This document shows, one piece after another, positions 25,963 to 49,304 of a DNA stretch of 56,563 bases. The notes beneath the pieces are model-generated. The model was not told the origin of the DNA. It was given only the letters and a program-made list of their open reading frames with translations, and ran no database searches. The position numbers and the translations under genes are program-made. Source of the stretch: Thermoplasmata archaeon (GTDB taxonomy: Archaea > Thermoplasmatota > Thermoplasmata > Halarchaeoplasmatales > Halarchaeoplasmataceae); NCBI GenBank assembly GCA_003553085.1, contig PUPH01000155.1:1-56563 (forward strand). The letters run 5' to 3'. How positions within the stretch are numbered: the stretch's first letter is position 1; each line of letters starts with the position of its first letter.

Positions 25963-26213
25963 CCAAGGGTAGATTGAACATACCTAGATGAATATTTTCC
26001 TCGCTAAAACTACAAAATGTTAAAATACGATGTTCGAGTTATATTTACCATTGAGGACCCGATTGCCGTAAGGGGTATATAGGATTCAGGTATAAGGGAT
26101 GATAACACCTTGATTCGTTGTATCATATACGAAGAAGTGATAAAAATGATATATGTCGTACTCTCACCGCCAAAAAACCAGTACAAAATAGTCCAAAATG
26201 GAGGTTTATATCG

Positions 26214-29200
26214 ATGACAGATAAGGTAAAGATCATGATCGTTGACGATAATCCAGACGATCGCTCTCTTGCGATAAGAGAACTGCGAAGAAATTTCAGG
26301 GACATAGAGATCATAGAGATCATCGATGCCGATGAGTTGGACGAAGCAATGGATGAGGGTGAATTCGATATAGTGATCACAGATTACCATATAAGATGGA
26401 CCGATGGATTGAAGGTTTTAAGAAGGGTTAAAGAACGTAAACCTGACTGCCCTGTGATCATGTTCACGGGCACAGGGAACGAAGAGGTGGCTGTTCAGGC
26501 GATGAAATCCGGCCTTGAAGACTACGTAGTCAAATCCCCCAAGCATTTCGTGAGACTTTCGGCATCAGTACACTCCGCACTTCAGGATATCAAAGAGCGA
26601 AGGGCGAAGAAAGAATTGGAGGATCTATACACCCGTCTTTTCGAAAGAGTTCCACTTGCGTTATATTCGGTCGATACTCATGGAAGGATACTCGCTGCAA
26701 ACACTGCGATGTTAGACCTCCTAGGGATTGATTCGAAGGATGAATTGAACGAATACAGGGCACAGGATTTTCATATAAAGGATGAAAAAAGGGATGAAGA
26801 AATATCTATATTGGATGAAAGGGGTTTGTTGAAAGGTTATGAGCTTCATCTAAAAAGAGTAGATGGAGAGGATATATGGGTGAAGGATTATGCCTATGTG
26901 ATCAGAGATGAAAAAGGTGAGATCAAATACATAGAAGGTAGCTTGGAAGATATCACAGCTATAAAAAAAGCACATCTAGAATTGAAGGAACAGAGGGATA
27001 AGATCGAACGACTTCATGAAGTGGCTCTGAAGATCTTGGACTGTACGGAGAAGCAGGAGGTCTATGAAACAACCATAGAAGCGGCTAAGAACATACTTGG
27101 ATTCAGCGCCTGTACCATACATGAGGTCGAAGACGACGAATTCGTGGTCAGGGCTACCCAAGACGGAGCTTTGGAGATAGGTAGTAGAAATCCCATCGAG
27201 GGTGTAGCTGGAAAAAGTTACAGGGAGCAGCGTTCGATATTGTTGAAAGATATATCTGAAGTTGACGATGCAAAGCCCGCCGATAAAGAATACCGTTCTG
27301 GGATATCTATACCTATCGGGGAAAAAGGTGTTTTCTTGAACATATCTACGGAAGCTGACGAATTCGACGAAGACGATCTGAAGATGGGAGAGATACTCGT
27401 TTCACACATGACCGACGCTTTGAGACGCATAGACTTCACCGATAGGATGAAGGAGAACGAAGAAAAACTTGAACAGCTGCATCGTGCAGCATCGAAGATG
27501 GAGACGATCATGTACGAAGATGAACTATACGACATCAGCTTAGAGCTAGCTTCAGATGTGCTTGACTTCCAATGGTGCACCATACACATCATCGAAGACG
27601 GGGATCTTATAGTTAAAGCTACCACACACCTTGGAACCGAAGTCGGAACTCATCTATCATTGGACGAAGGGATATACGGTAAAACATGCATGGAGAAGCG
27701 AACATTCATAGTAGATGACGTTACACAACACGAAGACGCAAAACCGTCCAGTCCGGAATTGAGATCGGTAATAAGTGTACCTCTAGGTGAGTTCGGTGAT
27801 CTTCAAGTACTATCGGATGAGGCGGGTCATTTCAATGAAACCGATAAAAAATTCGCCGAGTTACTCGCCAACCACATAACAGAGGCACTCCAGAGGATCA
27901 AGAAAAATAAGCAATTAAAGAAGAGCGAGGAAAGGTATCGCCTTATAACTGAAAATTCATACGACCTTATCGCCATGGTAGGATACGACGGGAAGTTAAC
28001 TTACGCGAATAAGGCATTTCAACGTGTTCTAGGGTATGATAATGAAGAGTTGATCGGTGAATACATTTTTGATATGCTTCACCCTGAAGATAAAGAAGGG
28101 GTTGAGGATATATTCTACCAAACCCTCGAGAAAGGGATACCACACGGGGTGGCACAATTCAAACTTAAAGATGACGATGGAAATTACCGATGGTTCGAAG
28201 CCGTGGGAAGAGGTGTAGAGGGCGAAGATCTGGTGATGGTGGTTTCCAGAGATATCGATAAAAGAAAGAAGGCTGAAATCAAAGCGATGGAAGGAAAGAA
28301 GGTGATAGAAAAACTGCATGAAACCGCTTCGAAGATGATGAACTCTAGCAATGAAGACGATATCTACAAACTCACCATAGAAGCAGCATCCAATATCCTT
28401 GATTTTGATGTTTGTACGATAGCCATCGAAGAGGATGATCACCTATTGATAAAGGAAACAACTGGCGAGGTCTATAGAGAGGGGATCATTTTAGATAAGG
28501 GTGTAGGGATTATCGGAAAGACCTACAACCAAAAAAAGGCCTTCATCATAGATAGAGTAGATGAGCTAGACGAAGCGAGACCGTATAATGAGGAATACAG
28601 ATCTGCATTGAGTGTACCATTTGGGGATATAGGGGTTTTCCAGTCCATCTCTTACACGGAGTCCGATTTCGACGAACACGATCTTGAGAGAGCCGAGATC
28701 CTGATCACACACGCATATGATGTGATCAAACGTATCCGCTATGAAAAAGAACTTGGAGAAAATCAAAAAAGATACAAGAGTATCTTTGAAAATACGGGCA
28801 CCGCTATGGTGATACTCGATCCGGAAATGGAAATCAAGATGTGTAATTTAGAGGCGCAGAATCTATTGGGGTATGATCCGGAGGAGATGACGGATAAAAA
28901 TCTAGCAGATTTTGTATTGGATAAGAAAGAATTGGAAGATCTGTTTGAGATACTCTTCGATGCAGAATATAACGGACAACATAGAGGGTTCTTAAGCATA
29001 TGTAATCGTTATGATGATGTGAAAGATATATTTCTGGTGTCTTCAGTATTACCGGACTATGACAGAATACTAGTATCTATGCTGGATGTGACTCAACAGG
29101 TCGATAACATGAAAAACCTAGAACAATCTCAAGAGTTATTTAGAGTGGCGTTCGAGGGGGCTCCGATCAGTATGCTGCTTGTGGATGAAGGGGGTATCAT

Positions 29201-29456
29201 ATTGGAAGCGAACGAGGCCATGTTGGAATTGGTCGGTATTCCTGAAGACGAGTTATTATCGATGAACCTAGAGGATTTGATCTCAAGCGGTGAAAGTATC
29301 AAAGAGATGCTATTAGATGAAGGGAAGGAAAAGATATCAAAAAAGATCTCGTTGAAGAACAAGGATGACGAAGAGATAATATGCTCGCTCACGGCGATGA
29401 CTGTTAAGCAGGAAGGGCAGGTAGACTGTATGCTAATCTATCTAAAAGAAAGTTAG
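26214..29456 (+). CDS. response-regulator receiver fused to PAS/GAF multisensor array, no recognisable output domain
   Basis: Track ORF trimmed to ATG 26214, with GGAGGT 8 nt upstream. REC motifs IMIVDDNPDD..DIVITDYHIRWTDG. Then PAS-GAF-GAF-PAS-GAF-PAS-PAS. The protein ends inside a PAS module (..DCMLIYLKES) with no HisKA/HATPase, HTH, GGDEF or HD domain seen. Confidence 0.9.
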   Translation: MTDKVKIMIVDDNPDDRSLAIRELRRNFRDIEIIEIIDADELDEAMDEGEFDIVITDYHIRWTDGLKVLRRVKERKPDCPVIMFTGTGNEEVAVQAMKSGLEDYVVKSPKHFVRLSASVHSALQDIKERRAKKELEDLYTRLFERVPLALYSVDTHGRILAANTAMLDLLGIDSKDELNEYRAQDFHIKDEKRDEEISILDERGLLKGYELHLKRVDGEDIWVKDYAYVIRDEKGEIKYIEGSLEDITAIKKAHLELKEQRDKIERLHEVALKILDCTEKQEVYETTIEAAKNILGFSACTIHEVEDDEFVVRATQDGALEIGSRNPIEGVAGKSYREQRSILLKDISEVDDAKPADKEYRSGISIPIGEKGVFLNISTEADEFDEDDLKMGEILVSHMTDALRRIDFTDRMKENEEKLEQLHRAASKMETIMYEDELYDISLELASDVLDFQWCTIHIIEDGDLIVKATTHLGTEVGTHLSLDEGIYGKTCMEKRTFIVDDVTQHEDAKPSSPELRSVISVPLGEFGDLQVLSDEAGHFNETDKKFAELLANHITEALQRIKKNKQLKKSEERYRLITENSYDLIAMVGYDGKLTYANKAFQRVLGYDNEELIGEYIFDMLHPEDKEGVEDIFYQTLEKGIPHGVAQFKLKDDDGNYRWFEAVGRGVEGEDLVMVVSRDIDKRKKAEIKAMEGKKVIEKLHETASKMMNSSNEDDIYKLTIEAASNILDFDVCTIAIEEDDHLLIKETTGEVYREGIILDKGVGIIGKTYNQKKAFIIDRVDELDEARPYNEEYRSALSVPFGDIGVFQSISYTESDFDEHDLERAEILITHAYDVIKRIRYEKELGENQKRYKSIFENTGTAMVILDPEMEIKMCNLEAQNLLGYDPEEMTDKNLADFVLDKKELEDLFEILFDAEYNGQHRGFLSICNRYDDVKDIFLVSSVLPDYDRILVSMLDVTQQVDNMKNLEQSQELFRVAFEGAPISMLLVDEGGIILEANEAMLELVGIPEDELLSMNLEDLISSGESIKEMLLDEGKEKISKKISLKNKDDEEIICSLTAMTVKQEGQVDCMLIYLKES

Positions 29457-29470
29457 GAGTTTGAGAACCG

Positions 29471-30952
29471 ATGGATGAAGAGGGATTCATAGATAGAAAT
29501 GAGGAATGTCGGATCCTCGAAAACATGGTGGAAGAGCTTGATAAAGGCAAGGGGGGTGCCGTGGTTATAACCGGAGAGGCGGGCATGGGTAAATCAACTT
29601 TGATCGAGTGGGTGATCGATAAAGCGGGAGAAAGAGGATACGATTCTTTTCAAGGCTCTTGTATCTCAAGGAACGGACTGGAGTATTATGCGTTCAAAGA
29701 GGCTTTTGAGGATATCGCATCACCAAACGAATCCATACCATCACTACCTCTTGGGATATCCATATTCTCAGACGGTAGGTCCGAGGAGGAGATCCCTTTG
29801 TTCGACTCGGAGAGGCAAAACACATTGAGAGAATCTTTCGAAGCGATCTCCAGCATGGCTTTGGAAACACCCATGATCATCATAATCGAGGAGTTGCATT
29901 GGGCGGATAAATCTACACTTTTGGCATTTAGATACCTATCGGAGCACTCTAGAGATCATCCTATCATGCTGATAGCCTCGTATAGATCCGACGAAGCCGT
30001 AGGCTATCATCTTTTGGATGAAACTATCCACCATCTAAAGCAGAAAGGGATATGTAAAGAAATAGATCTGACTTCCTTCGATGTAGATGATACAAAAGAT
30101 GCGTTGCATAGTTTGCTCGGGGAGGAGCCACCATATTGGTTCGCCCGAGGATTACAATCTAAAACCGATGGGAACCCTCTATTTATAACAGAGACCATAA
30201 AATCTATGCGATCCAAGGGAATACTGATACCTGAAGAGGGGGTTTATCCGGACATAGGATCATATCTCGATTGGCCGTCCACTGTTAAGTATATCGTGGA
30301 AAGGAAAATGGTCAAGCTGGATAAGAAAACAAAAAATCTACTAAAATACGCTAGCATACTCGGACCGTCCTTCCCATACAATCTATTGTCGGACTTCGTA
30401 GATATGGATGAGATGGAGATGTTGGATTACCTCGATACAGCGATCGAACATGGGATATTAGAGGAGATGATCAGTACGGAGGGATATCGTTTTACCCAAC
30501 AGGCAGTAAGAGACGTTCTCTACGAATCTCAATTCAAAGGAAAGAAAAGACTGCTTCATAAAAGAGCGGCAGAGTCCATCGAGAACATATACTATGGGGA
30601 TGAGACACCTTATGGTCGACTTGGTGAACATTACGAGAACGCAAAGATTTACGATAGATCATATGAGAATTACGTCAAAGCTGCGGAAACCGCTGAAGAT
30701 AACGATGAAAAAATAAGATTTTACAAAGCAGCTTTGAATGTTTCAAATAATACATCTATGGATGCTGAGGAGGTAAAAGAAGAATTTGGTAACCTGCTAC
30801 TTGAACATGGTGAAAAGTTGATCGAAGAAGGGAGTGAAGGGGATCTATTTTTAGAGGATGCGAAAGTTATCTTCAAGGATCTCGGTGACGAAGAGCGTCA
30901 TAAAAAAGCCTGCAGATTATTGGGTGAGGAGCAGGACAATATTTATAAATAA
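29471..30952 (+). CDS. AAA_16/STAND-like ATPase with short helical-repeat tail (paralog 2)
   Basis: FIDRNEECRILENMV, Walker A GEAGMGKST and Walker B MIIIIEELHWADKST. It starts 14 nt after the sensor stop, with TAGGAG 12 nt upstream of the ATG. Confidence 0.85.
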   Translation: MDEEGFIDRNEECRILENMVEELDKGKGGAVVITGEAGMGKSTLIEWVIDKAGERGYDSFQGSCISRNGLEYYAFKEAFEDIASPNESIPSLPLGISIFSDGRSEEEIPLFDSERQNTLRESFEAISSMALETPMIIIIEELHWADKSTLLAFRYLSEHSRDHPIMLIASYRSDEAVGYHLLDETIHHLKQKGICKEIDLTSFDVDDTKDALHSLLGEEPPYWFARGLQSKTDGNPLFITETIKSMRSKGILIPEEGVYPDIGSYLDWPSTVKYIVERKMVKLDKKTKNLLKYASILGPSFPYNLLSDFVDMDEMEMLDYLDTAIEHGILEEMISTEGYRFTQQAVRDVLYESQFKGKKRLLHKRAAESIENIYYGDETPYGRLGEHYENAKIYDRSYENYVKAAETAEDNDEKIRFYKAALNVSNNTSMDAEEVKEEFGNLLLEHGEKLIEEGSEGDLFLEDAKVIFKDLGDEERHKKACRLLGEEQDNIYK

Positions 30953-31005
30953 TATCATCTTCTACCATCACTACACCACATGGATGATATGAGTAAAACA
31001 CATAT

Positions 31006-31078
31006 GCGGGTGTGGTGTAGCCTGGTATCACTTAAGCTTGCCAAGCTTGGAACTCGGGTTCAAATCCCGGCACCCGCA
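31006..31078 (+). tRNA. tRNA-Gly (GCC)
   Basis: Cloverleaf folded by hand. Acceptor GCGGGTG/CACCCGC, anticodon arm TAAGC-TTGCCAA-GCTTG, T arm TCGGG-TTCAAAT-CCCGG, discriminator A. No encoded CCA. Confidence 0.9.
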
Positions 31079-31138
31079 TCCATCTTATCTTCTGAAAAAG
31101 TAATCGTATTATAGTTCACGTAATCCATAACACCAAGG

Positions 31139-31504
31139 CTAATCCATTGAAGCAACCTGTTCAAGTATAGAAATCTCTACAGGGGTTAAATCCTTTTTGA
31201 AAATATGTAGGAGTACTTTTTTATGAGCATGTTCATTACCTATAGTAACTCTCCCGTTAGATAATGCTCTGGAAACTCCTTTATCCTCGCCTTTGATTTT
31301 ACATATCAGATATAGTGAATAATCCTTCCTAGGCTTGGCCTCCAATTCGATCCTAGGTTCAACAGTCCATAAGGTATATGCTCCTGAAAATTCATCCCCA
31401 AGGAACACCCTACCGTCTATGCTAGCGACTTCCTCTTTTATCTCAATTTTCCAGGGGGCCGGTAGTTCGATCTTGTAAAACTCATCTTTTTCGATGTCGT
31501 TCAT
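31139..31504 (-). CDS. hypothetical cytoplasmic protein (last gene of island operon)
   Basis: 121-aa ORF with no TM segment and no recognisable motif. Same strand as the five upstream genes. Confidence 0.5.
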   Translation of the reverse strand: MNDIEKDEFYKIELPAPWKIEIKEEVASIDGRVFLGDEFSGAYTLWTVEPRIELEAKPRKDYSLYLICKIKGEDKGVSRALSNGRVTIGNEHAHKKVLLHIFKKDLTPVEISILEQVASMD

Positions 31505-31635
31505 ATATACAACTCGGAAGAATGAAGGGAGTTAGAGAATATATAGCCGTTTTGGAGTTATATCAATATAATAGTTTTACATGGCGAAATTTAGATAGCT
31601 TAAGTGATTTCAAGAAAAAATTGTGCCTCGATAAA

Positions 31636-32607
31636 TCATAAACGCTCTTTTTTGCGCACCCATATCATGAGCGCCACCACGGGAGCTAATACTATCGAAA
31701 GGGCCAATGCGGCGGCTAGTATTGGGTGTATACCTTTGTCTTTTATCTCAATAGTTAAGGTGGCGTTGACCTGCCGGACCTCATCATCGAAGGTCGACAG
31801 GACCAAAAACGGTTCATTTGCAATTGCTTCATTATAGCCCCTCCCGGCCACCAGCTCTTTTACTTTTGTCCTTTCTTCATCGTGACCATCTTTTTCTTCG
31901 AAATAATCAGCAACAACGAAATAATTCGGCCGGCCAAAGACATAAGCTCTTATGGGCACGTCAGATTCAACCCTCAATAAAACGTAATTATCATTCTGAT
32001 CGTATCCCCTAAGCATATCCGTCGGTGTCGTCATACCCCATAAACCAAGTCCATGTCCCCGGCCTTCAAAGCTGATATCTATAGGTCTACCTATCATGTG
32101 TCCTTCATCAAGGTGGTAGTAAAATATCATCTTGATAGAACCCTCGGTTTTCAACGTTAATTCGTTAACCCCCCTCAGGTCTATTCCCGATTTACCCTCT
32201 TCAACCGTAAAGGATTCTCCTCGATTATCAAAGTATCTTATGAGATTTTCATCTTGATCCCAAAAAGACACGTTTCCGTATTTCTGAGGCACCTCACCTC
32301 GATAATCCTCAGACCAGGTAAAACGATAATCAAGTCTCATCTCTTTATAAAATGCAGGGACCTCAAAAGTATACTCGTTTTTACCTGAGAAATATCTAGG
32401 GAAGAATAGATCCTCAAAATGTTCAGGACACTCCTCTTCATGATAGTACTCGAAAGGAAATTCTTTCTCATCTATCTCCCTGCTCTTTAGATAACGGTTG
32501 GATGCCACGGCGACCACCAACAGCATCAGGACCACCAAACATACTTTGATCTTAGGTTTCATGGATCCATGCCTCATATTTTTGTACCTTAACGATAATA
32601 TCACCAC
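31636..32607 (-). CDS. bitopic surface protein, paralog B (N-terminal signal/anchor, C-terminal TM anchor)
   Basis: Likely start at MKPKIKVCLVVLMLLVV (ATG 32562). C-terminal anchor LAAALALSIVLAPVVALMIWVRKKERL. Clear paralog of 34930..35877, sharing HFEDLFFPRYF.G.NEY.F.VP.F, LKT.GS, ISFEGRG, LWGM, AYVFG and QVNAT. Confidence 0.7.
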   Translation of the reverse strand: MVILSLRYKNMRHGSMKPKIKVCLVVLMLLVVAVASNRYLKSREIDEKEFPFEYYHEEECPEHFEDLFFPRYFSGKNEYTFEVPAFYKEMRLDYRFTWSEDYRGEVPQKYGNVSFWDQDENLIRYFDNRGESFTVEEGKSGIDLRGVNELTLKTEGSIKMIFYYHLDEGHMIGRPIDISFEGRGHGLGLWGMTTPTDMLRGYDQNDNYVLLRVESDVPIRAYVFGRPNYFVVADYFEEKDGHDEERTKVKELVAGRGYNEAIANEPFLVLSTFDDEVRQVNATLTIEIKDKGIHPILAAALALSIVLAPVVALMIWVRKKERL

Positions 32608-33299
32608 TCTTTAACCTTATAAACAGCGTATAATAACGATGTTGAGACTAAAATCGGAAAAATGATAAATCCATATGAGTAATAAAAGGTAGTTGGTCTT
32701 TCAGCTTTTATATATACCGAATCTCTAAGGCGTATCCATCGGTCATAACCAGTAGGGTTAACCAAAACATATAAGAAATAATCGCCACCGCGTTCTACGC
32801 TAAAAGAATATGATATGTTATTTTCTATGTCGTTTTCTGTCACTACTATCTCATCGTATTCCAATGTATACACATTTGAAGTACCTTTTTCTATTTTTCT
32901 ATACCAGTCATCATAAAATTCGATACTATCACGGCTCATGTGACCATGATGTCGGTCATAAAAAAGTTCTTCAGCTTCGGGTATCCAGTCTGATCGCAAT
33001 AGAAGCAACTTAACTCTGAACTCCTTTTCAGGTCTATTTATTATATTTACCGTTCCCGTGGCAGTTTCCCCTTCTTCCAGTTCGTACCTTTCATCTAGTC
33101 CATGATCGTCGTAGTTAACCCGTAACTCTAAATTCTGGTACAAAAGATGATACAACTTCATCTCAGGGTCATCATCAAAATCCGAATACATGTTTTCATC
33201 GGGTCTAGTTTCAAGTGGTTCACCAGCCCCTCGTAAGGTAGGGGGAGTACTAACTATAGATATCACCATCAGTATAGCCATTAGATAGGTCCATTTCAT
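32601..33299 (-). CDS. bitopic surface protein (signal peptide plus C-terminal TM anchor)
   Basis: 232 aa. N-terminus MKWTYLMAILMVISIVS and C-terminus FIIFPILVSTSLLYAVYKVKEW. The middle part is acidic and beta-rich. No family recognised. Confidence 0.6.
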   Translation of the reverse strand: MKWTYLMAILMVISIVSTPPTLRGAGEPLETRPDENMYSDFDDDPEMKLYHLLYQNLELRVNYDDHGLDERYELEEGETATGTVNIINRPEKEFRVKLLLLRSDWIPEAEELFYDRHHGHMSRDSIEFYDDWYRKIEKGTSNVYTLEYDEIVVTENDIENNISYSFSVERGGDYFLYVLVNPTGYDRWIRLRDSVYIKAERPTTFYYSYGFIIFPILVSTSLLYAVYKVKEW

Positions 33300-33333
33300 A
33301 CACTCACTTCCCTGATAGATAGATAGGATACAA

Positions 33334-34083
33334 TTATAAAAAAAAAGTCAGAAAGATTGGAAATACCAGCAATAGATTATACATCTCTCCTAAGTATTGA
33401 TGATACATATCCGCATAAAAGAATATCGCATATGGGAAAAGTATGGACACTATATATCTAAGGTTGTCCTCGACCAACGGACGGGGGATCGCGGTCATAG
33501 AAAAAAATGACACGACAGCATATATCGATGTCGCTAGCATTGGAAGGGTCTTCTTTTTAGAAACGATCGATATGAATATCGATAAAGAGAAAACAAAAAG
33601 GCAAACGATGAAACCTAGGAGAACATAGTTTGATATCCACATTATCTTGTACCATGATACCTTTCCCCAATAGTGATAGAGGATTATAGATTGTCCAAGT
33701 ATTATTAGATTGATAAACGCGATCAAAAATATCCCAGCCAGTATCTTACCGATGAAAGTCACCTTTTTTCCATCATTAAGCATGAACAGATTTTGGATCG
33801 TTTTGGCTTCGAATTCGCTTCCGAACAATTTCGATCCAAGATACCCACTGTATATCATCAATATCATATATGAAAAAATGAACCCTATAAATATCGCAAA
33901 GAAATCTCCTTTTGTGAACAGGTCAAAAACATCACCGCATGCTATGCTGATTCCAAATATGATGAGCACAAGTAAAAACAGACTGTGATCTTGAACTTCA
34001 TCTTTTATAGCTTGTTTGAATATGAAATAAATTCTCAGAAAATTATCATTCATGTCCGAAGAACCCCCTGTACGTTTTATCAA
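33334..34083 (-). CDS. ABC-2 type transporter permease
   Basis: About 6 TM helices directly downstream of the ABC ATPase. Likely start is ATG 34053, which would overlap the ATPase stop by 8 nt. Confidence 0.65.
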   Translation of the reverse strand: MIKRTGGSSDMNDNFLRIYFIFKQAIKDEVQDHSLFLLVLIIFGISIACGDVFDLFTKGDFFAIFIGFIFSYMILMIYSGYLGSKLFGSEFEAKTIQNLFMLNDGKKVTFIGKILAGIFLIAFINLIILGQSIILYHYWGKVSWYKIMWISNYVLLGFIVCLFVFSLSIFISIVSKKKTLPMLATSIYAVVSFFSMTAIPRPLVEDNLRYIVSILFPYAIFFYADMYHQYLGEMYNLLLVFPIFLTFFL

Positions 34084-34963
34084 GTGAATTATTTGCCGTG
34101 GAAAATTCTATTTCTTCCTTCAACAACCATTTGAATATATCTTTTTCCACATGAGGGATATTAGTGTCTAAAACTAATTTAACAGAAGTATCATCAACCT
34201 CTATGTCCAACACTCCTTCTATACTCTTCATCTCATGGACTCGATCAATGTCGGATATGTTTACCACGATCTCCTTAGAACGTCGAACCACGTCCATAGC
34301 ACCTATCGGAGACCCGTTATAAGCAACCTCCCCTTCCTTCAAAACGATTAGCCAGTTACATACATCTTCAATATCTCTCAACTGATGTGTTGATATCAAA
34401 ACTGACCTTTTTCCCTTCGATATGTTCGATATCAGACTCATCAAGTCTTGTTTTATTATCGGATCTAGCCCCGCTAACGGTTCATCTAGAATGAGCAAAC
34501 TCGGATCTGTCAGTAAGCATCTCGCTATGCCCAATCTCTTCCTCATACCGTTAGAATAGTTTTTTATTTTTTCCGACCTTTTATTGTAAAGACCAACGGT
34601 TTTCAATTTTTGATCTATCTTATCTTTTTTATTATCAAGCAGATACAATTCGCTGAAATAACGGAGATATTGTTCCCCAGTCGATTGTAAATAATAGCCT
34701 TCATCTTCTCCTAGGTATCCTATCATCGATGTATCACTGCCTTCAACATCGCCTTCCAAAATCTCTAGCTCACCCTGGTACTTCAGAAGCCCTGCCACGC
34801 ACTTTATCAATGTTGTCTTACCCGCACAATTTGGTCCCACTAAGCCTGCGACTTTGCCTCTCGGGATGTACAGAGATACATCTTTCAAAGCATGCAGACT
34901 TCCATAATATTTATTGAGATTTTCGACCCTCAATGCCGTTTTTTCTTTTCTTTGTTTATCCAT
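34046..34963 (-). CDS. ABC transporter ATP-binding protein
   Basis: Walker A GPNCAGKTT, signature YSNGMRKRLGIA, Walker B LLILDEP, H-loop STHQL. Its start overlaps the upstream gene by 34 nt. Confidence 0.9.
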   Translation of the reverse strand: MDKQRKEKTALRVENLNKYYGSLHALKDVSLYIPRGKVAGLVGPNCAGKTTLIKCVAGLLKYQGELEILEGDVEGSDTSMIGYLGEDEGYYLQSTGEQYLRYFSELYLLDNKKDKIDQKLKTVGLYNKRSEKIKNYSNGMRKRLGIARCLLTDPSLLILDEPLAGLDPIIKQDLMSLISNISKGKRSVLISTHQLRDIEDVCNWLIVLKEGEVAYNGSPIGAMDVVRRSKEIVVNISDIDRVHEMKSIEGVLDIEVDDTSVKLVLDTNIPHVEKDIFKWLLKEEIEFSTANNSLDKTYRGFFGHE

Positions 34964-35877
34964 ATCATCATCCCTGCTACAGGTACCAACACTGATGAGA
35001 GAGCTACCACTGTTATCCAGTTAGGATAAGTTTCCTGCTCAATTATCTCAAGTGATACTGTTGCATTTACCTGTTCGATATCATCCCCAAAGGTAGATAA
35101 CACAAGATAAGGCTGGTTCACTATAGATAACTTTCTAACTTCTAGTTCCTTTTCTTTCGATCCCGCTTCATCGTAACTACCTTCTTCGAAGTGATCACGG
35201 AAATGAGAAGGAGAGCCAAATACATATGCTTTGAGAGGATTCTCAGATCTGACCTCGAATACCAAGTAGTGTTTATCTGGATCATAATTCTCGATTCCGT
35301 CCCCCAATCCCATACCCCACAAACAATAACCTATTCCTCTTCCTTCAAAACTGATTTCCACTGAGGATGTGAGTATATGCGTCACGTCTAGATCGATACT
35401 GAATATAGTTCTAAATGAACCCCGTGTCTTTAGAGTCATTGAGGTGACATCATCTAAATTGATCCCTTCGTATCCTCCGCCACCTATGTTTATCTTTCGA
35501 TTATCTGTGGAAAATAAAATATTTCCATTTTGGTCCATTAAAGTGATATTTGCATAGTTCACCGGATCATCCTCTAAACCTTGATCTGGAGGTGATTGAT
35601 ATCCCTGATACTCTTCGTCCCAGGTAAGGTCCCAACTCAAATTTTTATCCTGAAAGAAGGGTGGTACATCAAAGGAGTATTCGTTGATTCCTGTAAAATA
35701 CCTAGGAAAGAACAGGTCCTCAAAATGCTGCAAAGGAGCTTGTTCGTCATAGTGATCAAAGGGAGATTCTTTTTCATCATATATCCCCCGGCCAAAACGC
35801 ATCAGATGACTAGTGGTGAAACATGCCATAAGCATCATCACAATTATCAAGCAACATCTTAATTTCATATCGAACAT
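34930..35877 (-). CDS. bitopic surface protein, paralog A
   Basis: 315 aa. N-terminal hydrophobic CCLIIVMMLMACF and C-terminal anchor WITVVALSSVLVPVAGMMIWINKEKKKRH. Paralog of 31636..32607. Confidence 0.7.
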   Translation of the reverse strand: MFDMKLRCCLIIVMMLMACFTTSHLMRFGRGIYDEKESPFDHYDEQAPLQHFEDLFFPRYFTGINEYSFDVPPFFQDKNLSWDLTWDEEYQGYQSPPDQGLEDDPVNYANITLMDQNGNILFSTDNRKINIGGGGYEGINLDDVTSMTLKTRGSFRTIFSIDLDVTHILTSSVEISFEGRGIGYCLWGMGLGDGIENYDPDKHYLVFEVRSENPLKAYVFGSPSHFRDHFEEGSYDEAGSKEKELEVRKLSIVNQPYLVLSTFGDDIEQVNATVSLEIIEQETYPNWITVVALSSVLVPVAGMMIWINKEKKKRH

Positions 35878-36008
35878 GGTAAATTACACCATTCTATTTA
35901 TAACTTATTATCAGTATAGGTAAAAGCAGAGATGTTGATAGATTTATCAAATCAAAGGATATCATCTTGCCCACAATGTTTTTAAGTGTGGCATCGGATT
36001 CAGCCGAT

Positions 36009-36611
36009 ATGGAACCTTCACATGAGGACATCAAGGAAAAAGAGGGAAACAGATTCAACGCAACGAGCCTGATAGGTGATGTAAAAGTGGGTGAGATGTC
36101 GTACATATGGCCCGGTAGTTTGGTCAGGGGTACGATATCGGGTGTCAAAATAGGTGATGAAGTCACGATATTAGACAACGTGATCATATCAGATTCCCAT
36201 GGAAAAAAGACCGAGATAGACGAAGGAGTCTTCATCTCCCCTGGCTCCGTATTGAAAGGATGTAACATAGGTAAGAACTCTTTCATCGGTATGGACAGTG
36301 TCGTGATGAAAGGTGCAGAGATAGGAGAAGGGGCTGTGATATCCAACGGCAGCATAGTTCCCACCGATATGAAAGTGCCAGAGGGTAAGGTAGTAGCGGG
36401 ATCGCCCGCCGAGGTCGTAGGAGATGTGTCTGAAAGGGACCTTAAGCGGATAAGAAAAATCAGAGAACACGTTAACTGGAGGAGAGAAGAGTATTTCACC
36501 ATGAGGGAAAGAGGGGAGAGATACGGAGTGGACCGGGCTCCATCACGACCGGACGAGATAAGAGCGCTGTTGCTCGATGATGAAGAAAATGGTGGGGCCG
36601 CCGAAATTTGA
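36009..36611 (+). CDS. left-handed beta-helix (hexapeptide repeat) protein, gamma-carbonic-anhydrase-like
   Basis: GDVKVGEMSYIWPGSLVRGTISGVKIGDEVTILDNVII and further hexapeptide repeats. The usual GH...HG metal-ligand stretch reads SPGSVLKG, so it is probably non-catalytic. Track start TTG 35967; ATG 36009 preferred. Confidence 0.75.
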   Translation: MEPSHEDIKEKEGNRFNATSLIGDVKVGEMSYIWPGSLVRGTISGVKIGDEVTILDNVIISDSHGKKTEIDEGVFISPGSVLKGCNIGKNSFIGMDSVVMKGAEIGEGAVISNGSIVPTDMKVPEGKVVAGSPAEVVGDVSERDLKRIRKIREHVNWRREEYFTMRERGERYGVDRAPSRPDEIRALLLDDEENGGAAEI

Positions 36612-36667
36612 ATTCGGGTACCAGGCTCCCAAAGCCCGAAGGATGGACCAAGCTACCCCACGGCCCC
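36593..36667 (-). tRNA. tRNA-Pro (UGG)
   Basis: Minus strand GGGGCCG..CGGCCCCA. Anticodon arm CGGGC-TTTGGGA-GCCTG, T arm CCGAA-TTCAAAT-TTCGG, discriminator A. 75 nt. Confidence 0.9.
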
Positions 36668-36695
36668 ATAGGATACAGCTACCAAAAGGAATTTG

Positions 36696-36704
36696 TAATA
36701 TATA
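36696..36704 (-). promoter_or_regulatory. TATA box for tRNA-Pro
   Basis: Minus-strand GTATATATTAC lies about 30 nt upstream of the tRNA 5' end. Confidence 0.4.
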
Positions 36705-36783
36705 CTTTCTCCTCGATGCATCCGGTACTTATTTTCCAAGAAAGCGTAAAAATGTTTATTAAAAAGGTCCGCTTTTCGGGTGG

Positions 36784-37617
36784 TTGGAGATACACTTGAA
36801 AAGAGAAGACATAAAGGTCGCCGTGGTAAGGATCGAAGGTACCAACTGTGAAGAGGAATCGTACCTAGCGTTCAAAAGATTGGGTGCCGATGCAGAAAAG
36901 GTGCATCTTAAACAGTTCACAGGGGAGGACGTCAGTTCACAGGAAAAAAGGGAGTTGGAAGACTACGATATATTGATGATCCCGGGTGGATTCTCTTCAG
37001 GAGATTACATTCGAGCAGGGGTCATCTTTGGTGCAAGATTTAAAAGTGCTCTAAAAAACGAGTTGATAGACTTTGCAGGTTCCGGTAAACCCATCTTAGG
37101 TGTATGCAACGGATTCCAGGTCCTGGTGGAGATGGGGGTTCTTCCAGCGGTTGACGGAGAGATCACCGACGTTCCACAGGCGGTCCTGGCAACCAACGAC
37201 AGCAGTAAGTTCGAATGCAGACCCAGTTTGCTCAAGGTTGAAGATGACTCAAAATGTGTGTTCACCAGAGAGTACGAAAAAGGAGAAACTGTTGTCTTCC
37301 CGAGTGCACATGCGGAAGGTAAATTCCTTGTAAGGGACGATGAAACACTCAGAAAGCTGAAGAAGAACGGTCAGATCGTCTTTAAATACACATCTCCTGA
37401 TGGAGAACCCTTAGATTATCCATGGAATCCGAACGGATCTATAGAGGATATAGCAGGTATATGTAATCCAACTGGCAACGTTCTTGGATTGATGCCTCAC
37501 CCGGAGAGGGTCTTTTATGATCATACCAATCCAGACTGGACAAGAGGAAAAAGGGGTAGAGGCGACGGAAAACCGCTGTTCGAATCGGTTTTGAACTACG
37601 TGGAGAACGAATTCTGA
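36784..37617 (+). CDS. purQ: phosphoribosylformylglycinamidine synthase I (glutaminase subunit)
   Basis: KVAVVRIEGTNCEEE, PGGFSSGDY, GVCNGFQVL and MPHPER. The start is TTG 36784 or TTG 36796. Confidence 0.9.
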   Translation: MEIHLKREDIKVAVVRIEGTNCEEESYLAFKRLGADAEKVHLKQFTGEDVSSQEKRELEDYDILMIPGGFSSGDYIRAGVIFGARFKSALKNELIDFAGSGKPILGVCNGFQVLVEMGVLPAVDGEITDVPQAVLATNDSSKFECRPSLLKVEDDSKCVFTREYEKGETVVFPSAHAEGKFLVRDDETLRKLKKNGQIVFKYTSPDGEPLDYPWNPNGSIEDIAGICNPTGNVLGLMPHPERVFYDHTNPDWTRGKRGRGDGKPLFESVLNYVENEF

Positions 37618-38000
37618 ATCATGAGTTCAACGAGGTGACCGTCTTGAAGTCCCAGTTCATCCCTTAAATTTTTATCAGATATGATCTCGGCGACATCATG
37701 GTATGAACTCTTCTCAGGTATGACTAGATAACATCGAACGTCTTCTATATTTGCTGGAAACACTCGTACACGACCATATTCTTTACCTTGCTCTATGAAT
37801 GGTTCTAAAATAACACAGTCGTTGGATCTAGTTAACTCTTGATATCGCTTTGCACTCTCTTCGTCCAACTCTATGTTCATGGTCCCCTCTACCGGCTCGA
37901 TATCCAACTTGCTCTTGAATTGTTCTTTGTATCCAAATAGAGATAGGAAGAAACTCCCTCTACCCAATCCAGATACTACCTTACCTTTAAGCAACATCAA
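37596..38000 (-). CDS. ribK: CTP-dependent riboflavin kinase (archaeal)
   Basis: LKGKVVSGLGRGSFFLSL..YKEQF...L.IEPVEGTMNIEL matches the archaeal RibK N-terminus. Its 3' end overlaps the purQ 3' end by 22 nt (convergent). Confidence 0.85.
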   Translation of the reverse strand: MMLLKGKVVSGLGRGSFFLSLFGYKEQFKSKLDIEPVEGTMNIELDEESAKRYQELTRSNDCVILEPFIEQGKEYGRVRVFPANIEDVRCYLVIPEKSSYHDVAEIISDKNLRDELGLQDGHLVELMIQNSFST

Positions 38001-38347
38001 TACTCACCATCTACCTCCAGATAAGCTTTCTCTCGGAGGTACGCCACGGGTATATCTTCATCCCTGGCCCGACTTCGTAACTCCGCATCGTTCGTTATGA
38101 GTACGGCTTTCAGCTCTAGAGCGGCCTGTAGTACGCCTTCGTCCCGTTCCTTATCGACCTCGTATATTTCGTACTTGTCCGCTAACATCAAAGCGTCCTT
38201 CCTCTTCAACGTTCTTAGCTCCTTAATAACGGATGAAGGGACATATACTTCAGGATCACCGAACAGCCTTGTGATCTCGAAATCTATGTTTATGTTGAAC
38301 TGAAAGGGCATCATCAATGCGTTGGTGTCGAGCACTACTGAATTCAT
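37997..38347 (-). CDS. PIN-domain protein (Fcf1/Utp24-like archaeal family)
   Basis: VVLDTNALMMPFQF, VPSSVIKEL and LITNDAEL. It has 4-nt ATGA-type overlaps with both cysC (upstream) and ribK (downstream). Confidence 0.75.
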   Translation of the reverse strand: MNSVVLDTNALMMPFQFNINIDFEITRLFGDPEVYVPSSVIKELRTLKRKDALMLADKYEIYEVDKERDEGVLQAALELKAVLITNDAELRSRARDEDIPVAYLREKAYLEVDGEY

Positions 38348-38925
38348 GATATGTATCCTTCTTTTACTAGGTAGTCGATCACGTTCTGAACGCTTTCTTC
38401 TATGTTTTCCTTATGGGTTTCCAGCACTATCTCCGGCTCTTCCGGCTCCTCGTAGGGATCGGAAATACCTGTGAAATTTTTGATCTCTCCGTTCCTAGCC
38501 TTCTCGTACAGCCCCTTGACATCTCTTTCCTCACATACTTCCACCGGACACTTCACGAAAACTTCGATGAAGTTAGTCACCATATCTCGTGTTTTCCCCC
38601 TTCGTTCCCGATAGGGTGATATGAAGGAGGCTAAAACCGCGACACCGTTCCTGGAGAGTAACTTTGCAACGAAACTGACCCTTTCTATGTTCATATCACG
38701 GTCCTCTTTGGTAAAACCGAGGTCGGATGTTAGATGCTGTCTGACTATGTCCCCATCAAGGCGTTCCACCGATTCACCGAATTCATCTTCCAGTCTAATA
38801 GCCACCCGTTCGGCCACCGCCGACTTACCGGAACCCGACAGTCCGGTGAACCAAAGTGTGTAGCCATCCTTGATATTCTTCTTATCCCAATGCTGTTCGT
38901 TTGCAATTATGTTTTCATTAACCAT
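38344..38925 (-). CDS. cysC: adenylyl-sulfate (APS) kinase
   Basis: LWFTGLSGSGKSAVA, LDGDIVRQHLTSDLGFTKEDRDMNIERV and SFISPYR. Confidence 0.9.
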   Translation of the reverse strand: MVNENIIANEQHWDKKNIKDGYTLWFTGLSGSGKSAVAERVAIRLEDEFGESVERLDGDIVRQHLTSDLGFTKEDRDMNIERVSFVAKLLSRNGVAVLASFISPYRERRGKTRDMVTNFIEVFVKCPVEVCEERDVKGLYEKARNGEIKNFTGISDPYEEPEEPEIVLETHKENIEESVQNVIDYLVKEGYIS

Positions 38926-38944
38926 CTTATCATACCTCTCACGA

Positions 38945-39934
38945 TCACAACTTCTTGATCACTTCATCCAGTATCTCATCTTCCTGCTCGGTGGGGATCA
39001 CCATCCCCACCACATCCTCCTTACCACCTGCGGAGTGACCTTTGTTTCGAACGTATTCGATGATCTCTTTGGAGTTCGGTATAGCACCTCTGATGTACAC
39101 CTGTGTTTCCCCTGGATGAAAGGAAGGGTTCGTTACCATGACGATATCGTCGTCCGATCTGCTCCATGAGATCTTTCTTGTCACAGTAGAGATGATGTTG
39201 TATGGTGTTTTCAACCTCAGCCTGTATAGGTTCTCTTTCGATCTGGTCAGCTCTCTTTTCGACAACCGCTCGATGGTCTCTTCAAGCTTCTCAAGGTTCT
39301 CTTTCAGATCTTTTCTAGACAAGATCTCGTTGGGGTGTGTAACGTCCATCAGGAACCAGGGGAACTCCCTGATCGATTTTCTATCACCCAATTTATGAAG
39401 GGTGTCCATCATGTGAACGCATCTCAGCATGTCGTCGAATCCTACCTTAAAAGAATCCATCAATGGCTGTATAACATTCATTGCTCTTTCGTTCTCTTTC
39501 AGCTTGGTCTCTCTATCACCGAAGGCTCCTAGTATGGTAAGGATATCCGGTTCTAGCTCTAAGTATTCAGTAACCACCCAGGAACAGCTCGGATATTCTT
39601 TAGGAGTTTTTCCGGATATTATCGGGTTATGATGCATTTCTACATCGTGCCTTTCCTGTATATGGTGATCGAATATGTGGACTCCGCCGAATCCTTTCAA
39701 GAATTCGATAGAGTCCTTCGGTAAAGCCATGTCGGCAACGATGGTGTGATCCGGGTCCAACTTCCGGATCTCTTCTTTGTCTTCCTCGTTCAAGAGGTAG
39801 TTACCGATGGTTGGGGTAAAAGTTTCGTAAGTGCCTTCTAAACACCTAAGCAATATCGCTGCAGAAGACATACCATCGGCATCCCAGTGATGTAGGAGCA
39901 AACCAGGTTCCTCAGTTTCGTTCTCTTTGGCCAT
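38945..39934 (-). CDS. DHH-family phosphoesterase (candidate pAp phosphatase/nanoRNase)
   Basis: LLHHWDADGMSSAAIL (DHH motifs I-II) and HIFDHH (motif III). It sits between sat and cysC. Confidence 0.75.
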   Translation of the reverse strand: MAKENETEEPGLLLHHWDADGMSSAAILLRCLEGTYETFTPTIGNYLLNEEDKEEIRKLDPDHTIVADMALPKDSIEFLKGFGGVHIFDHHIQERHDVEMHHNPIISGKTPKEYPSCSWVVTEYLELEPDILTILGAFGDRETKLKENERAMNVIQPLMDSFKVGFDDMLRCVHMMDTLHKLGDRKSIREFPWFLMDVTHPNEILSRKDLKENLEKLEETIERLSKRELTRSKENLYRLRLKTPYNIISTVTRKISWSRSDDDIVMVTNPSFHPGETQVYIRGAIPNSKEIIEYVRNKGHSAGGKEDVVGMVIPTEQEDEILDEVIKKL

Positions 39935-39944
39935 AGTGGTTCAC

Positions 39945-41102
39945 CTACTCGACGAACTTCGGGTCCGCATCTATCACTATCCGAGCCACTTCCGGCCTCA
40001 TCATATGTTCGGGAGGTATCTTACCCTCCATAAGTATCTTCCTCATCTTGGTCCCGCTGAAGTTCTCCCGATGCTCTTCTCCATGGGGGCAAATGAAACC
40101 ATCGACGGCACCGCCGCATTTCTCGCAGTATGTGAATGATTTGAAGAAAACGGGCGTGATATCCAGGTCTGGGAACCGGTCAAATATATCCTGGGCGGCA
40201 TAGGGGCCATAGTGATCGCCTACACCTGCATGATCCCTACCCACGATGAAATGGGTGCATCCGAAGTTCTTTCGCAGGATCGCATGGAAGATGGCTTCCT
40301 TGGGCCCGGCGTATCTCATCTCGGCTTGCAATATACTCATCACCGCTCGGTTCTTTAGATAGTAGTTATCCATGAGTGTTTGATAGGAGTCCAATATCAC
40401 CTCGTCCAGGTAATCACCAGTTTTCTTCTCACCTATGATCGGGTTGATGAATATTCCGTCAACGAAGGTGAGAGCGGTCTTCTGCACGTATTCATGCCCT
40501 AGATGGGGTACGTTTCTCGTCTGAAAACCTACCACCGTTCTCCATCCCTTCTCTTTGAAGAGGACTCTTGTCTCTATCGGCCGTAGGTTGTAATTTTGAA
40601 AGCCGGAATCGGTCTCGTTTATCTGTGTTATCTCTCCACCGATGAGGAAGTCATCCATGTTTCTGACCTTTTGTACTCCAGGATGAGCCTCGTTCGTTGT
40701 ACCGTAAACGCTCTCAGCCATGTGATCCTTATCGTATCCGTAGATCTCTTCGATGGACATCATGGCGAAACTGGCACCCGTTTCGGTCTGTAGTATGATC
40801 TCCTCTTCCCGCTTCAGTTCATCAGCGGTTGCTTTGTCCACATCAAGAGTTATCGGGATGGTCCAAGGGATGTCGCTTGACAACCTATCGTGATGAAGTA
40901 CGTTCTCGAAGTCATCCCTGCAAAGGAATCCTTCTAATGGACTGTAAACACCGGAGGCGATGTTCTCTACATCCTTTCTCAATCCACCGTTCAGTTTAAG
41001 GGTGGTCATACTCTCCGCTTCTTCCAGAAGACGTTCCTTCTTACTGCTGGAAACGATCCTATTTATCAGCGTTCCGCCGTGGGGTTTTGGCATCTTGAAC
41101 AC
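39945..41102 (-). CDS. sat: sulfate adenylyltransferase (ATP sulfurylase)
   Basis: PHGGTLINR, VGFQTRNVPHLGHEY and HFIVGRDHAGVG. Confidence 0.9.
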   Translation of the reverse strand: MFKMPKPHGGTLINRIVSSSKKERLLEEAESMTTLKLNGGLRKDVENIASGVYSPLEGFLCRDDFENVLHHDRLSSDIPWTIPITLDVDKATADELKREEEIILQTETGASFAMMSIEEIYGYDKDHMAESVYGTTNEAHPGVQKVRNMDDFLIGGEITQINETDSGFQNYNLRPIETRVLFKEKGWRTVVGFQTRNVPHLGHEYVQKTALTFVDGIFINPIIGEKKTGDYLDEVILDSYQTLMDNYYLKNRAVMSILQAEMRYAGPKEAIFHAILRKNFGCTHFIVGRDHAGVGDHYGPYAAQDIFDRFPDLDITPVFFKSFTYCEKCGGAVDGFICPHGEEHRENFSGTKMRKILMEGKIPPEHMMRPEVARIVIDADPKFVE

Positions 41103-48797: not shown

Positions 48798-49304
48798 ATG
48801 CCCGGTAGTGGAAAAGAAGAGTTCATCAGGGTCGCTAAAGAAAAAGGATACTCTGTTGTTCGTATGGGTGATGTAGTCAGAGAGTGGGTAAAAAAAAAAG
48901 AACTCGATATGGATGACGGTAGTGTGGGTGGATTCGCACACTCCGAGAGGGAGAAACACCATTACGGCATCTGGGCGGAGAGGACTTTAAAGAAGATACA
49001 GGTACAAAAAACGATCATCGACGGTTTGAGGGGTGATGAGGAACTCGAGATATTCCGGAAAAAACTCGGTCACGATCTAGTGGTTGTAGCCGTTTATGCT
49101 TCACCAAAAACCAGATACAACAGATTGGTGGCTAGAGCGAGACAGGACGCCCCAGGCTCTTACACCGAGTTCAAAGAAAGAGATAGGAGAGAATTAAGAT
49201 GGGGACTAGGTGAGGTCATAGCTCTGGCAGATCATACAATAGTCAACGAAGGGAGTCTAGAGGAATTTAGGGTCAAGGCAGATAGGCTGCTGGAAGACCT
49301 ATGA
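48798..49304 (+). CDS. P-loop nucleotide kinase-like protein (UPF0200 / dephospho-CoA-kinase-like)
   Basis: MPGSGKEEFIRVAKEKGYSVVRMGDVVRE. The expected beta-1 strand (ISTILVTG) is encoded in frame upstream of the ATG, but without any ATG/GTG/TTG (see findings). Confidence 0.7.
   Translation: MPGSGKEEFIRVAKEKGYSVVRMGDVVREWVKKKELDMDDGSVGGFAHSEREKHHYGIWAERTLKKIQVQKTIIDGLRGDEELEIFRKKLGHDLVVVAVYASPKTRYNRLVARARQDAPGSYTEFKERDRRELRWGLGEVIALADHTIVNEGSLEEFRVKADRLLEDL

Follow-up and report, generated by a model that had tools for sequence, protein, structure and literature searches.

A candidate four-component ABC-2 exporter at a fast-changing locus of halophilic Thermoplasmata

Contig PUPH01000155.1 of Thermoplasmata archaeon assembly GCA_003553085.1 (56,563 nt; the whole stretch is called the window herein) carries, beside a tRNA-Gly(GCC) gene, six minus-strand genes that we refer to as g1 to g6 in order of transcription. 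The cluster combines an ATP-binding cassette (ABC) ATPase and an ABC-2 permease with surface proteins of no recognized family, and it raises two questions: what do these genes do together, and how did they come to lie there? An initial annotation, made from the letters alone, read the cluster as a horizontally acquired envelope or export module of undescribed type. The second half of that reading was supported, since every locus that we recovered pairs, without exception, accessory proteins lacking a known family with an ABC-2 transporter. The first half was not supported as it was put, as described below. Taken as a whole, the cluster is in our view best explained, with a probability of roughly 0.5, as a lineage-restricted four-component ABC-2 (type V) exporter, possibly with a protective or handling role, encoded at an ancestral locus that turns over quickly.

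The transporter pair and its surface proteins

The product of g2 matched PF00005 in Pfam (E=4e-27, profile positions 1-137), as is expected of an ABC nucleotide-binding subunit, and its translation retains intact Walker A (GPNCAGKT), signature (SNGMRKR), Walker B (LLILDEP), and H-loop (STHQ) motifs. It falls in a class of exporter ATPases that comprises ABCA, NosF, PmtCD, Rv1218c, DrrA, GldA, and lantibiotic-protection proteins, and no equivalog cut-off was reached. All of its best NCBIfam matches were below their cut-offs, with GldA (TIGR03522) on top at 156.3 versus 402.6 bits; the lantibiotic-protection profile TIGR03740 gave 147.6 bits against a cut-off of 309.75. The best sequence matches in the PDB were the nucleotide-binding domains of ABCA7, ABCA3, and ABCA1 together with NosF (1e-36 to 1e-38). 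For the permease, g3, the scores lay just over the cut-offs of ABC2_membrane_2 (PF12679, 28.6 versus 27.2 bits) and ABC2_membrane_4 (PF12730, 27.3 versus 27 bits), and no significant sequence or profile match was found in the PDB. PF12679, which we take to be the Pfam family that includes NosY, was matched by all five permease orthologs tested. With six to seven hydrophobic peaks the full-length permease is consistent with an ABC-2 permease of about 250 aa, the profile match being marginal. These results bear out the ATPase and permease identities first proposed.

The accessory proteins of this and related loci fell into three families in an all-against-all BLAST comparison, here called A, G4, and S, while g6 stood alone. 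Two of the window's proteins, g1 and g5, are family-A paralogs (43% identity, E=1e-77), and g4, which is unrelated to them, represents family G4. Hydropathy profiles of g1, g4, and g5 agree with the N-terminal signal or anchor and C-terminal transmembrane (TM) helix that had been assigned to these three proteins, and add a short basic tail. Their lack of a family was likewise borne out: Pfam and NCBIfam assigned none, with nothing in Pfam at E≤1 for g1 and g5 and only one sub-threshold SNaCT6 match for g4. More broadly, families A, G4, and S had no match in Pfam, NCBIfam, PHROG, PADLOC, or PDB sequences (for S, the scans were of Pfam, PHROGs, and PDB), the family scans yielding nothing beyond generic matches to ABC ATPases, and profile-profile tests among the three aligned only signal-peptide or TM segments. 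None of 12 family-A members matched ABC_transp_aux or PF05048. In addition, the alignments of A, G4, and S contain no Cys, His, or Met column that is invariant or nearly so, which argues against an enzyme or a metal site. Judged by record titles, all three families have so far been traced only to metagenome-assembled genomes (MAGs) of Thermoplasmata, and family A is rare: an exhaustive HMMER search found 13 members among 1.84 billion representative proteins, and word-indexed searches found 2-4.

Since word-indexed homolog searches with the family alignments gave few proteins, the AlphaFold2 models of the ectodomains were built from shallow alignments of 3-5 sequences. The model of g5 (5 sequences; predicted local distance difference test score, pLDDT, 71.8; predicted TM-score, pTM, 0.70) places two beta-sandwich domains between an N-terminal helix and a C-terminal TM helix. 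Its Foldseek matches in the PDB were of tandem jelly-roll, CUB, and collagen-binding types such as SIDT1/2, cubilin, and ColG, with TM-scores of at most 0.29. We rejected these matches as homology because they are generic, with TM-scores of at most 0.36 over PDB and BFVD, and the viral-library matches are equally so. The low-confidence g4 model (pLDDT 56.8) predicts an immunoglobulin (Ig)-like sandwich with inserted helices, and Foldseek returned nothing for it at E≤1e-3.

Gene order is regular. The arrangement A-ATPase-permease-G4, that is g1-g2-g3-g4, is identical in at least 10 distinct loci, namely the window, L004, L006, L005, L007/L008, L010, L011, L012, L013/L014, and L015/L016, where L004 belongs to Ca. 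Haladaptatiplasma halalkaliphilum HAP24 and L006 to Thermoplasmata archaeon HAP25. The four-gene operon was present wherever a full-length family-A member was traced; a family-A gene heads the operon in all related loci, and the G4 gene always follows the permease gene directly, with g4 aligning to eight orthologs from the same position. Coupling between the reading frames is similarly regular. The ATPase/permease and permease/G4 overlaps are 4 nt in nearly all loci (L010, with 11 nt at the ATPase/permease junction, is the exception), and the A/ATPase overlap is usually 22-34 nt across related loci. The C-terminal helix of family A carries an 'IW...K/R' pattern in nearly all members, which are otherwise 19-45% identical to g5; this may point to a docking helix, more than a simple anchor. 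Because of the invariant gene order, the translational coupling, the conserved anchor helices, and a fusion variant described below, we consider it probable that the module forms a type V ABC exporter of four subunits, with A and G4 as obligate partners of the permease on its extracytoplasmic side.

In the mechanism that we propose, the ATPase and a six-helix permease would be made together with two single-pass membrane proteins, A (g1), with two beta-sandwich domains outside the cell, and G4 (g4), with one Ig-like sandwich. The two would serve as fixed extracytoplasmic subunits that dock on the permease via their conserved C-terminal helices, and would thereby supply in trans the type of ectodomain that ABCA-type exporters carry in cis. 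ABCA1/3/4/7 provided the best solved-structure matches to g2 (1e-33 to 1e-38), and ABCA-type lipid exporters share with the proposed module the type V fold and large extracellular domains atop the transmembrane domains. However, the likeness is confined to the nucleotide-binding domain, and the ABCA ectodomains are loops of one giant polypeptide, whereas those of the module are separate single-pass proteins of unrelated folds.

ABC-2 exporters with accessory ectodomain proteins are already known, for example Nos and Gld, and the core of the module is ordinary in that sense; families A, G4, and S and their five-part arrangement are undescribed. The initial analogy to GldAFG and NosDFY is sound at the level of an ABC-2 transporter plus accessory proteins, but the matches to the GldA, GldG, and NosD families that it would entail were not found. 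Like the module, GldA/GldF/GldG of Bacteroidota gliding combines an ABC-2 ATPase and permease with a membrane-anchored auxiliary that has a large external domain. Yet GldA, although the best NCBIfam profile for g2, scored only 156 bits against its cut-off of 402, the permease has no GldF-type match, the host is an archaeon, and neither A nor G4 matched the GldG-type ABC_transp_aux family. GldG is also anchored at both ends, whereas signal-peptide cleavage probably leaves A and G4 as type I proteins with a single anchor. NosDFY(L) (7o0y and related structures) likewise couples a stand-alone ATPase and a six-helix ABC-2 permease to a beta-rich partner outside the cytoplasm, and NosF is among the closest solved structures to g2. 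In place of the NosD beta-helix, however, A and G4 are modeled as membrane-anchored beta-sandwiches, with no PF05048 match in g1, g4, or g5; the module has no conserved metal ligands, and it has two different accessory proteins and a secreted S instead.

A poly-T tract in the permease gene

As assembled in the window, g3 is 13 residues shorter at its C-terminus than its orthologs and ends inside the last TM helix, with the stop codon just past a run of nine T (T9, in the sense of the gene). Upon addition of a single T, g3 extends to 33296 and overlaps the g4 ATG by 4 nt (ATGA), as in related loci. The same change restores the C-terminus FIIVSYLSIREVSV, which aligns without gaps with the ortholog in L005 (…LSYLMIREVNV). 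The 34-nt gap between g3 and g4 reported initially is thus present in the sequence but arises from a frameshift in this tract.

The window is 99.9-100% identical to contigs of the MAGs GCA_019594345.1, GCA_003553355.1, and GCA_964632835.1 and to the Logan assembly of SRR490150, and three tract lengths occur in this set. T9, with a truncated permease of 239 aa, was found in the window, L002, and L003; T10, with a full-length permease of 252 aa and the ATGA overlap with g4, in L017 (GCA_964632835.1); and T8, which yields an in-frame permease-G4 fusion of 483 aa, in L018 (GCA_003553355.1). The T8, T9, and T10 assemblies belong to one organism and are >99.9% identical. The topology of the T8 fusion is compatible, in that TM6 is followed by a short loop and then by the G4 signal helix as a seventh TM segment. 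We take the fusion as a Rosetta-stone hint that permease and G4 may associate physically. Either misassembly of the homopolymer or genuine variation, of population or phase type, could underlie the differences in tract length. No homopolymer occurs at the same permease position in the other loci, and the tract is specific to the organism of the window. A second long homopolymer in the window, A10, lies at 48890-48899.

The secreted partner S and the role of the module

Most copies of the module are accompanied by S, a protein of 219-253 aa with a Sec-type signal peptide and no anchor that diverges quickly but conserves an 'SPYP-DGG-GY' motif. The S gene adjoins an A gene in L004, L005, L006, L007, L008 (twice), L010, L013, and L015. 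L008 (706-4362) has two tandem copies of the S-A unit, and the duplication takes in about 40-60 codons from the 5′ end of the ATPase gene; identity is 58% between the S copies and 82% between the A copies. The window presents a variant without S, in which a second A-type paralog, g5, follows G4, along with the orphan gene g6. Some module copies stand beside toxin-antitoxin-type genes, including AbiEii, PemK, AF2212-like, and PIN genes (L012, 9437-11529; L015, 10294-10920), a placement that suggests variable or defence-rich regions.

The tight linkage of S and A, their duplication as a unit, the faster divergence of S, its presence or absence between genomes, the compositional and allelic turnover of the locus, and the toxin-antitoxin neighbors in some loci led us to propose, tentatively, that the pump serves for protection against, or handling of, secreted S. 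At the cell surface, protein A would capture S or some comparable membrane-active factor from outside, and the ABC-2/G4 core would then spend ATP to expel the A-bound factor from the membrane. The window's S-less version with two A proteins would represent an "orphan immunity" set. This picture has three main inferred elements: that A and G4 dock on the permease, which way transport runs, and that the set confers immunity. We also considered a NatAB-type sodium pump and a plain drug-efflux pump, and set both aside because neither explains two obligate ectodomain partners and the linkage to S.

A similar logic is seen in LanFEG with LanI/LanH and in PmtABCD, whose ATPases are of the same class as g2 (TIGR03740, PmtA/PmtC, and 6xjh matches) and which likewise place a pump and surface-anchored binding protein(s) beside a secreted, fast-evolving product. 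Module copies without S resemble the orphan immunity sets of such lantibiotic or peptide self-protection pumps. In contrast to these systems, all profile scores are below cut-offs, and each locus has one permease gene, not two. S also differs from known bacteriocins and halocins, being a Sec-secreted protein of about 220-250 aa with no similarity to them.

Other functions can be read from the same genes. An envelope-biogenesis exporter, in which a lipid-linked glycan, lipid, or other surface component would be pumped outward under the guidance of A and G4 (compare Wzm/Wzt, TagGH, and GldAFG) and S would be a surface client or structural partner, would account for the ABC-2 architecture and for the ranking of GldA and the ABCA lipid exporters at the top of the NCBIfam and PDB matches. 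The accessory proteins are also surface proteins of glycosylation type with N-X-S/T sequons, and a Wzm/Wzt chain heads the Foldseek matches of the G4 model, though weakly (E=2e-3) and for a model of low confidence. We nevertheless find this function doubtful, since no glycosyltransferase or lipid-synthesis gene is linked to the module in any of the at least 10 loci, the GldA score stays far from family level, and a module so rare and so duplicated or variable within genomes would be unusual for core envelope machinery. Less probable again is a contingency locus, in which slippage in the poly-T tract would switch the pump among its T10, T9, and T8 forms and the S-A pairs would make up an unknown archaeal system of secreted toxin and cognate receptor (immunity), serviced by a dedicated ABC-2/G4 pump; we regard it as unlikely. 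Least probable of the three is a NosDFY-like machine that delivers a metal or cofactor to S as a secreted client. The NosF match (1e-36), the PF12679 match of the permease, and the secreted partner encoded alongside are what such a machine would predict, but neither A nor G4 matches NosD or another family, their alignments and that of S lack the expected Cys, His, or Met columns, and no NosL or NosZ gene was found in the window neighborhood or the recovered loci.

Several observations weigh against the protective exporter that we favor. Every genome that carries the module is an uncultured MAG, and the ectodomain models, with their shallow alignments and generic Foldseek matches, yield no functional clue. 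The permease is truncated in the T9 form of the window, so this copy may be partly inactive, and tblastn found no S homolog or remnant in the 56-kb window. S itself shows no detectable similarity to a toxin, halocin, or other known family, its charge is inconsistent among loci (isoelectric points of 4.1 to 8.5), and because its signal peptide is of Sec type, it does not need the pump for export.

Composition, synteny, and origin of the locus

The initial annotation had inferred horizontal acquisition, and had noted the composition by spot counts and the position next to tRNA-Gly. A full compositional and tetranucleotide scan confirmed that the cluster is AT-richer than its surroundings: positions 31079-35966 have a GC fraction of 0.386 against a window mean of 0.451 (SD of 5-kb windows, 0.026), which makes this the most AT-rich stretch. 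Among 104 sliding windows, none exceeds this region in tetranucleotide L1 distance, and its GC-normalised tetranucleotide correlation is the lowest (0.81 versus a mean of 0.88). GC at third codon positions is 0.34-0.44 in the cluster genes and mostly 0.42-0.60 elsewhere in the window. The flanking genes had been put at 48-53% GC, but the immediate flanks measure 42-48%. In L004 and L005, the module is likewise AT-richer than its flanks, scaled to host GC, and in L006 it is not.

In a review (PMC11332174), Haladaptatiplasma is assigned to the halophilic order 'Ca. Halarchaeoplasmatales', which is known only from MAGs. At this locus, the relatives available for comparison are HAP24, HAP25, and another uncultured Thermoplasmata MAG. 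In HAP24, the module lies between the same flanks as in the window, with the hexapeptide gene, tRNA-Pro, and PurQ on one side and tRNA-Gly, an AAA_16 ATPase, and a PAS-GAF response regulator on the other. In HAP25, whose contig stops short of the second side, the hexapeptide/tRNA-Pro/PurQ flank is the same. The initial annotation had named synteny in relatives as the mark of a core and not an accessory cluster, and the module is indeed syntenic in them, which at least in part turns that check against its own inference.

Both flanks contain further genes. On the tRNA-Gly side of the window, 26118-30952 (+) encodes a multi-domain protein of 1112 aa with response-regulator/PAS/GAF domains and, after it, an AAA_16 (STAND-like) ATPase of 493 aa that partially matches a TOMM kinase/cyclase fusion profile; the pair is kept beside tRNA-Gly in HAP24 at only about 37% identity. 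On the other side, 37596-41102 (-) encodes ATP sulfurylase, a DHH phosphoesterase, APS kinase, a PIN-domain protein, and a CTP-dependent riboflavin kinase, a block whose synteny extends to HAP24 and HAP25. Here the PIN nuclease gene adjoins the genes for sulfate activation.

Within these boundaries, the module has been rearranged. The four-gene block is inverted in the window relative to HAP24. Comparison of the family-A proteins showed that g5 is 44% (43.9%) identical to the 'B' copy of HAP24 and 23% (22.9%) to its 'A' copy, from which we take g5 to be the ortholog of 'B'. The operon-leading g1 is 35.5% identical to the same 'B' copy and 23.6% to the 'A' copy that heads the operon in HAP24, and thus appears to be a B-type replacement. 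The window arrangement can be explained from the HAP24 type by inversion of A-ATPase-permease-G4 and loss of S, which would leave the 'B' paralog g5 by tRNA-Gly.

Sequence identities set the module and its flanks apart. Between HAP24 and HAP25, the module is conserved at least as well as housekeeping genes (ATPase 94%, A 92%, PurQ 82%). Between the window and HAP24, it falls far below the flanks: the ATPases are 46% identical, as compared with 65% for PurQ, 69% for ATP sulfurylase, and 76% for APS kinase, and the window ATPase is no nearer to this syntenic copy than to those of non-syntenic loci, being 43-49% identical to all other copies.

How the cluster arose is weighed among a fresh insertion, a replacement in place, and unusually fast divergence. 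The recent genomic island integrated at tRNA-Gly that was first suggested draws on the adjacent tRNA-Gly, with tRNA-Pro on the other side, and on the lowest GC and most deviant tetranucleotide usage of the window. Of the features that mark a tRNA-targeted island, however, only the atypical composition was found. The flanks shared with HAP24 and HAP25 contradict absence from the site in relatives, the stretch from one tRNA to the other contains no open reading frame (ORF) with integrase features, 30800-36800 holds no tRNA-derived direct (att-like) repeat, no family-A relative was found in IMG/VR viral contigs, and the GC dip recurs in other hosts. We consider such an island very improbable, and regard the locus as ancestral to this group of halophilic Thermoplasmata on the evidence of synteny, with no fresh insertion at tRNA-Gly. 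Because the module is conserved between HAP24 and HAP25 but has diverged between the window and HAP24 beyond its flanks, replacement of the cassette at the conserved locus (xenologous displacement) is a serious possibility, to which we give somewhat less than even odds. By this account, g1-g4 would have been swapped in from a distant, lower-GC donor and would not be the vertical ortholog of the HAP24 and HAP25 module. Simple fast drift fits poorly with an ATPase that is better conserved than PurQ between HAP24 and HAP25, and the inversion, the nearness of g1 to the B type, and the compositional extreme agree with a swap. On the other hand, no donor was found, the window copy being an outlier to every known copy, and no mobility genes or repeats were seen; surface-related modules can evolve fast, and low GC, recurring as it does in L004 and L005, may be a property of the genes and not the signature of a donor. 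Unusually fast divergence is the alternative. Replacement would concern origin only and is compatible with the protective exporter proposed above. The locus turns over fast, by inversion of the four-gene block, loss of S, changes of A paralogs, and possibly exchange of the whole cassette.

The coordinates of the cluster are collected in Table 1. All six minus-strand ORFs reported initially are present, as is tRNA-Gly(GCC), which was the sole Rfam match at E≤0.1 in 30500-37000. With maximal ORFs, the junctions come out as first given (34-, 38-, and 7-nt overlaps; 34- and 131-nt gaps), but likelier starts give a g2/g3 overlap of 8 nt (ATG 34053) and a g4-g5 gap of ~38 nt (ATG 32562). Upstream of g1, the TATA-box-like element spans 18-26 nt before the ATG, with its center 22 nt away from the first ATG and 31 nt from the second; judged by the known archaeal promoter consensus, it is a putative operon promoter. 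The inclusion of g6 in the operon did not stand, as this gene is conserved in no related locus and probably has its own promoter. Its orthologs occur only in assemblies of the window organism (a singleton cluster), and it had no Pfam, NCBIfam, PHROGs, PADLOC, or PDB match. Between g5 and g6 lie an oligo-T run, after the g5 stop (31612-31620), and TATA-like elements (31538-31546 and 31560-31572). From these features, g6 is probably a separate transcription unit outside the conserved module, and the conserved operon probably consists of g1-g4, perhaps with g5.

Table 1 Features of the exporter locus and its boundaries in the window
Feature	Position	Strand	Description
tRNA-Gly(GCC)	31005..31082	+	ARAGORN and Rfam; convergent with the cluster, 56 nt beyond the g6 stop; conserved locus boundary
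g6, orphan protein, 121 aa	31139..31504	-	Cytoplasmic; singleton
g5, second family-A paralog, 308 aa from ATG 32562	31636..32562	-	Maximal ORF starts at GTG 32607
g4, family-G4 protein, 232 aa	32601..33299	-	Signal peptide, predicted Ig-like beta-sandwich ectodomain, C-terminal TM helix
g3, ABC-2 permease, T9 form, 239 aa	33334..34053	-	Truncated within the last TM helix
Homopolymer A9 on + (T9 in gene sense)	33338..33346		Permease 3′ end; length differs between near-identical assemblies
g2, ABC ATPase, 305 aa	34046..34963	-	DrrA/GldA/NosF/ABCA-like class; overlaps g1 by 34 nt
g1, family-A protein, 315 aa	34930..35877	-	First operon gene; signal peptide, two predicted beta-sandwich domains, C-terminal TM helix, basic tail
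TATA-box-like element TTATAAATA	35895..35903	-	Upstream of g1; putative operon promoter
tRNA-Pro(TGG)	36590..36667	-	With the hexapeptide-repeat gene (35967-36611), the other conserved boundary

The cell envelopes and conflict systems of the halophilic Thermoplasmata that host this module are essentially unstudied, and the strict co-occurrence of A, G4, and S with the transporter defines a testable five-part system in these uncultured archaea. If S should prove not to be archaeocin-like and the poly-T variation not to be real, the result would still be a useful definition of new families, though not a surprising one. If the poly-T variation is true within populations, it would be a clear archaeal case of homopolymer phase variation, and one of an envelope system. 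If S is an archaeocin-like effector, the module would represent a new class of archaeal antagonism and immunity.

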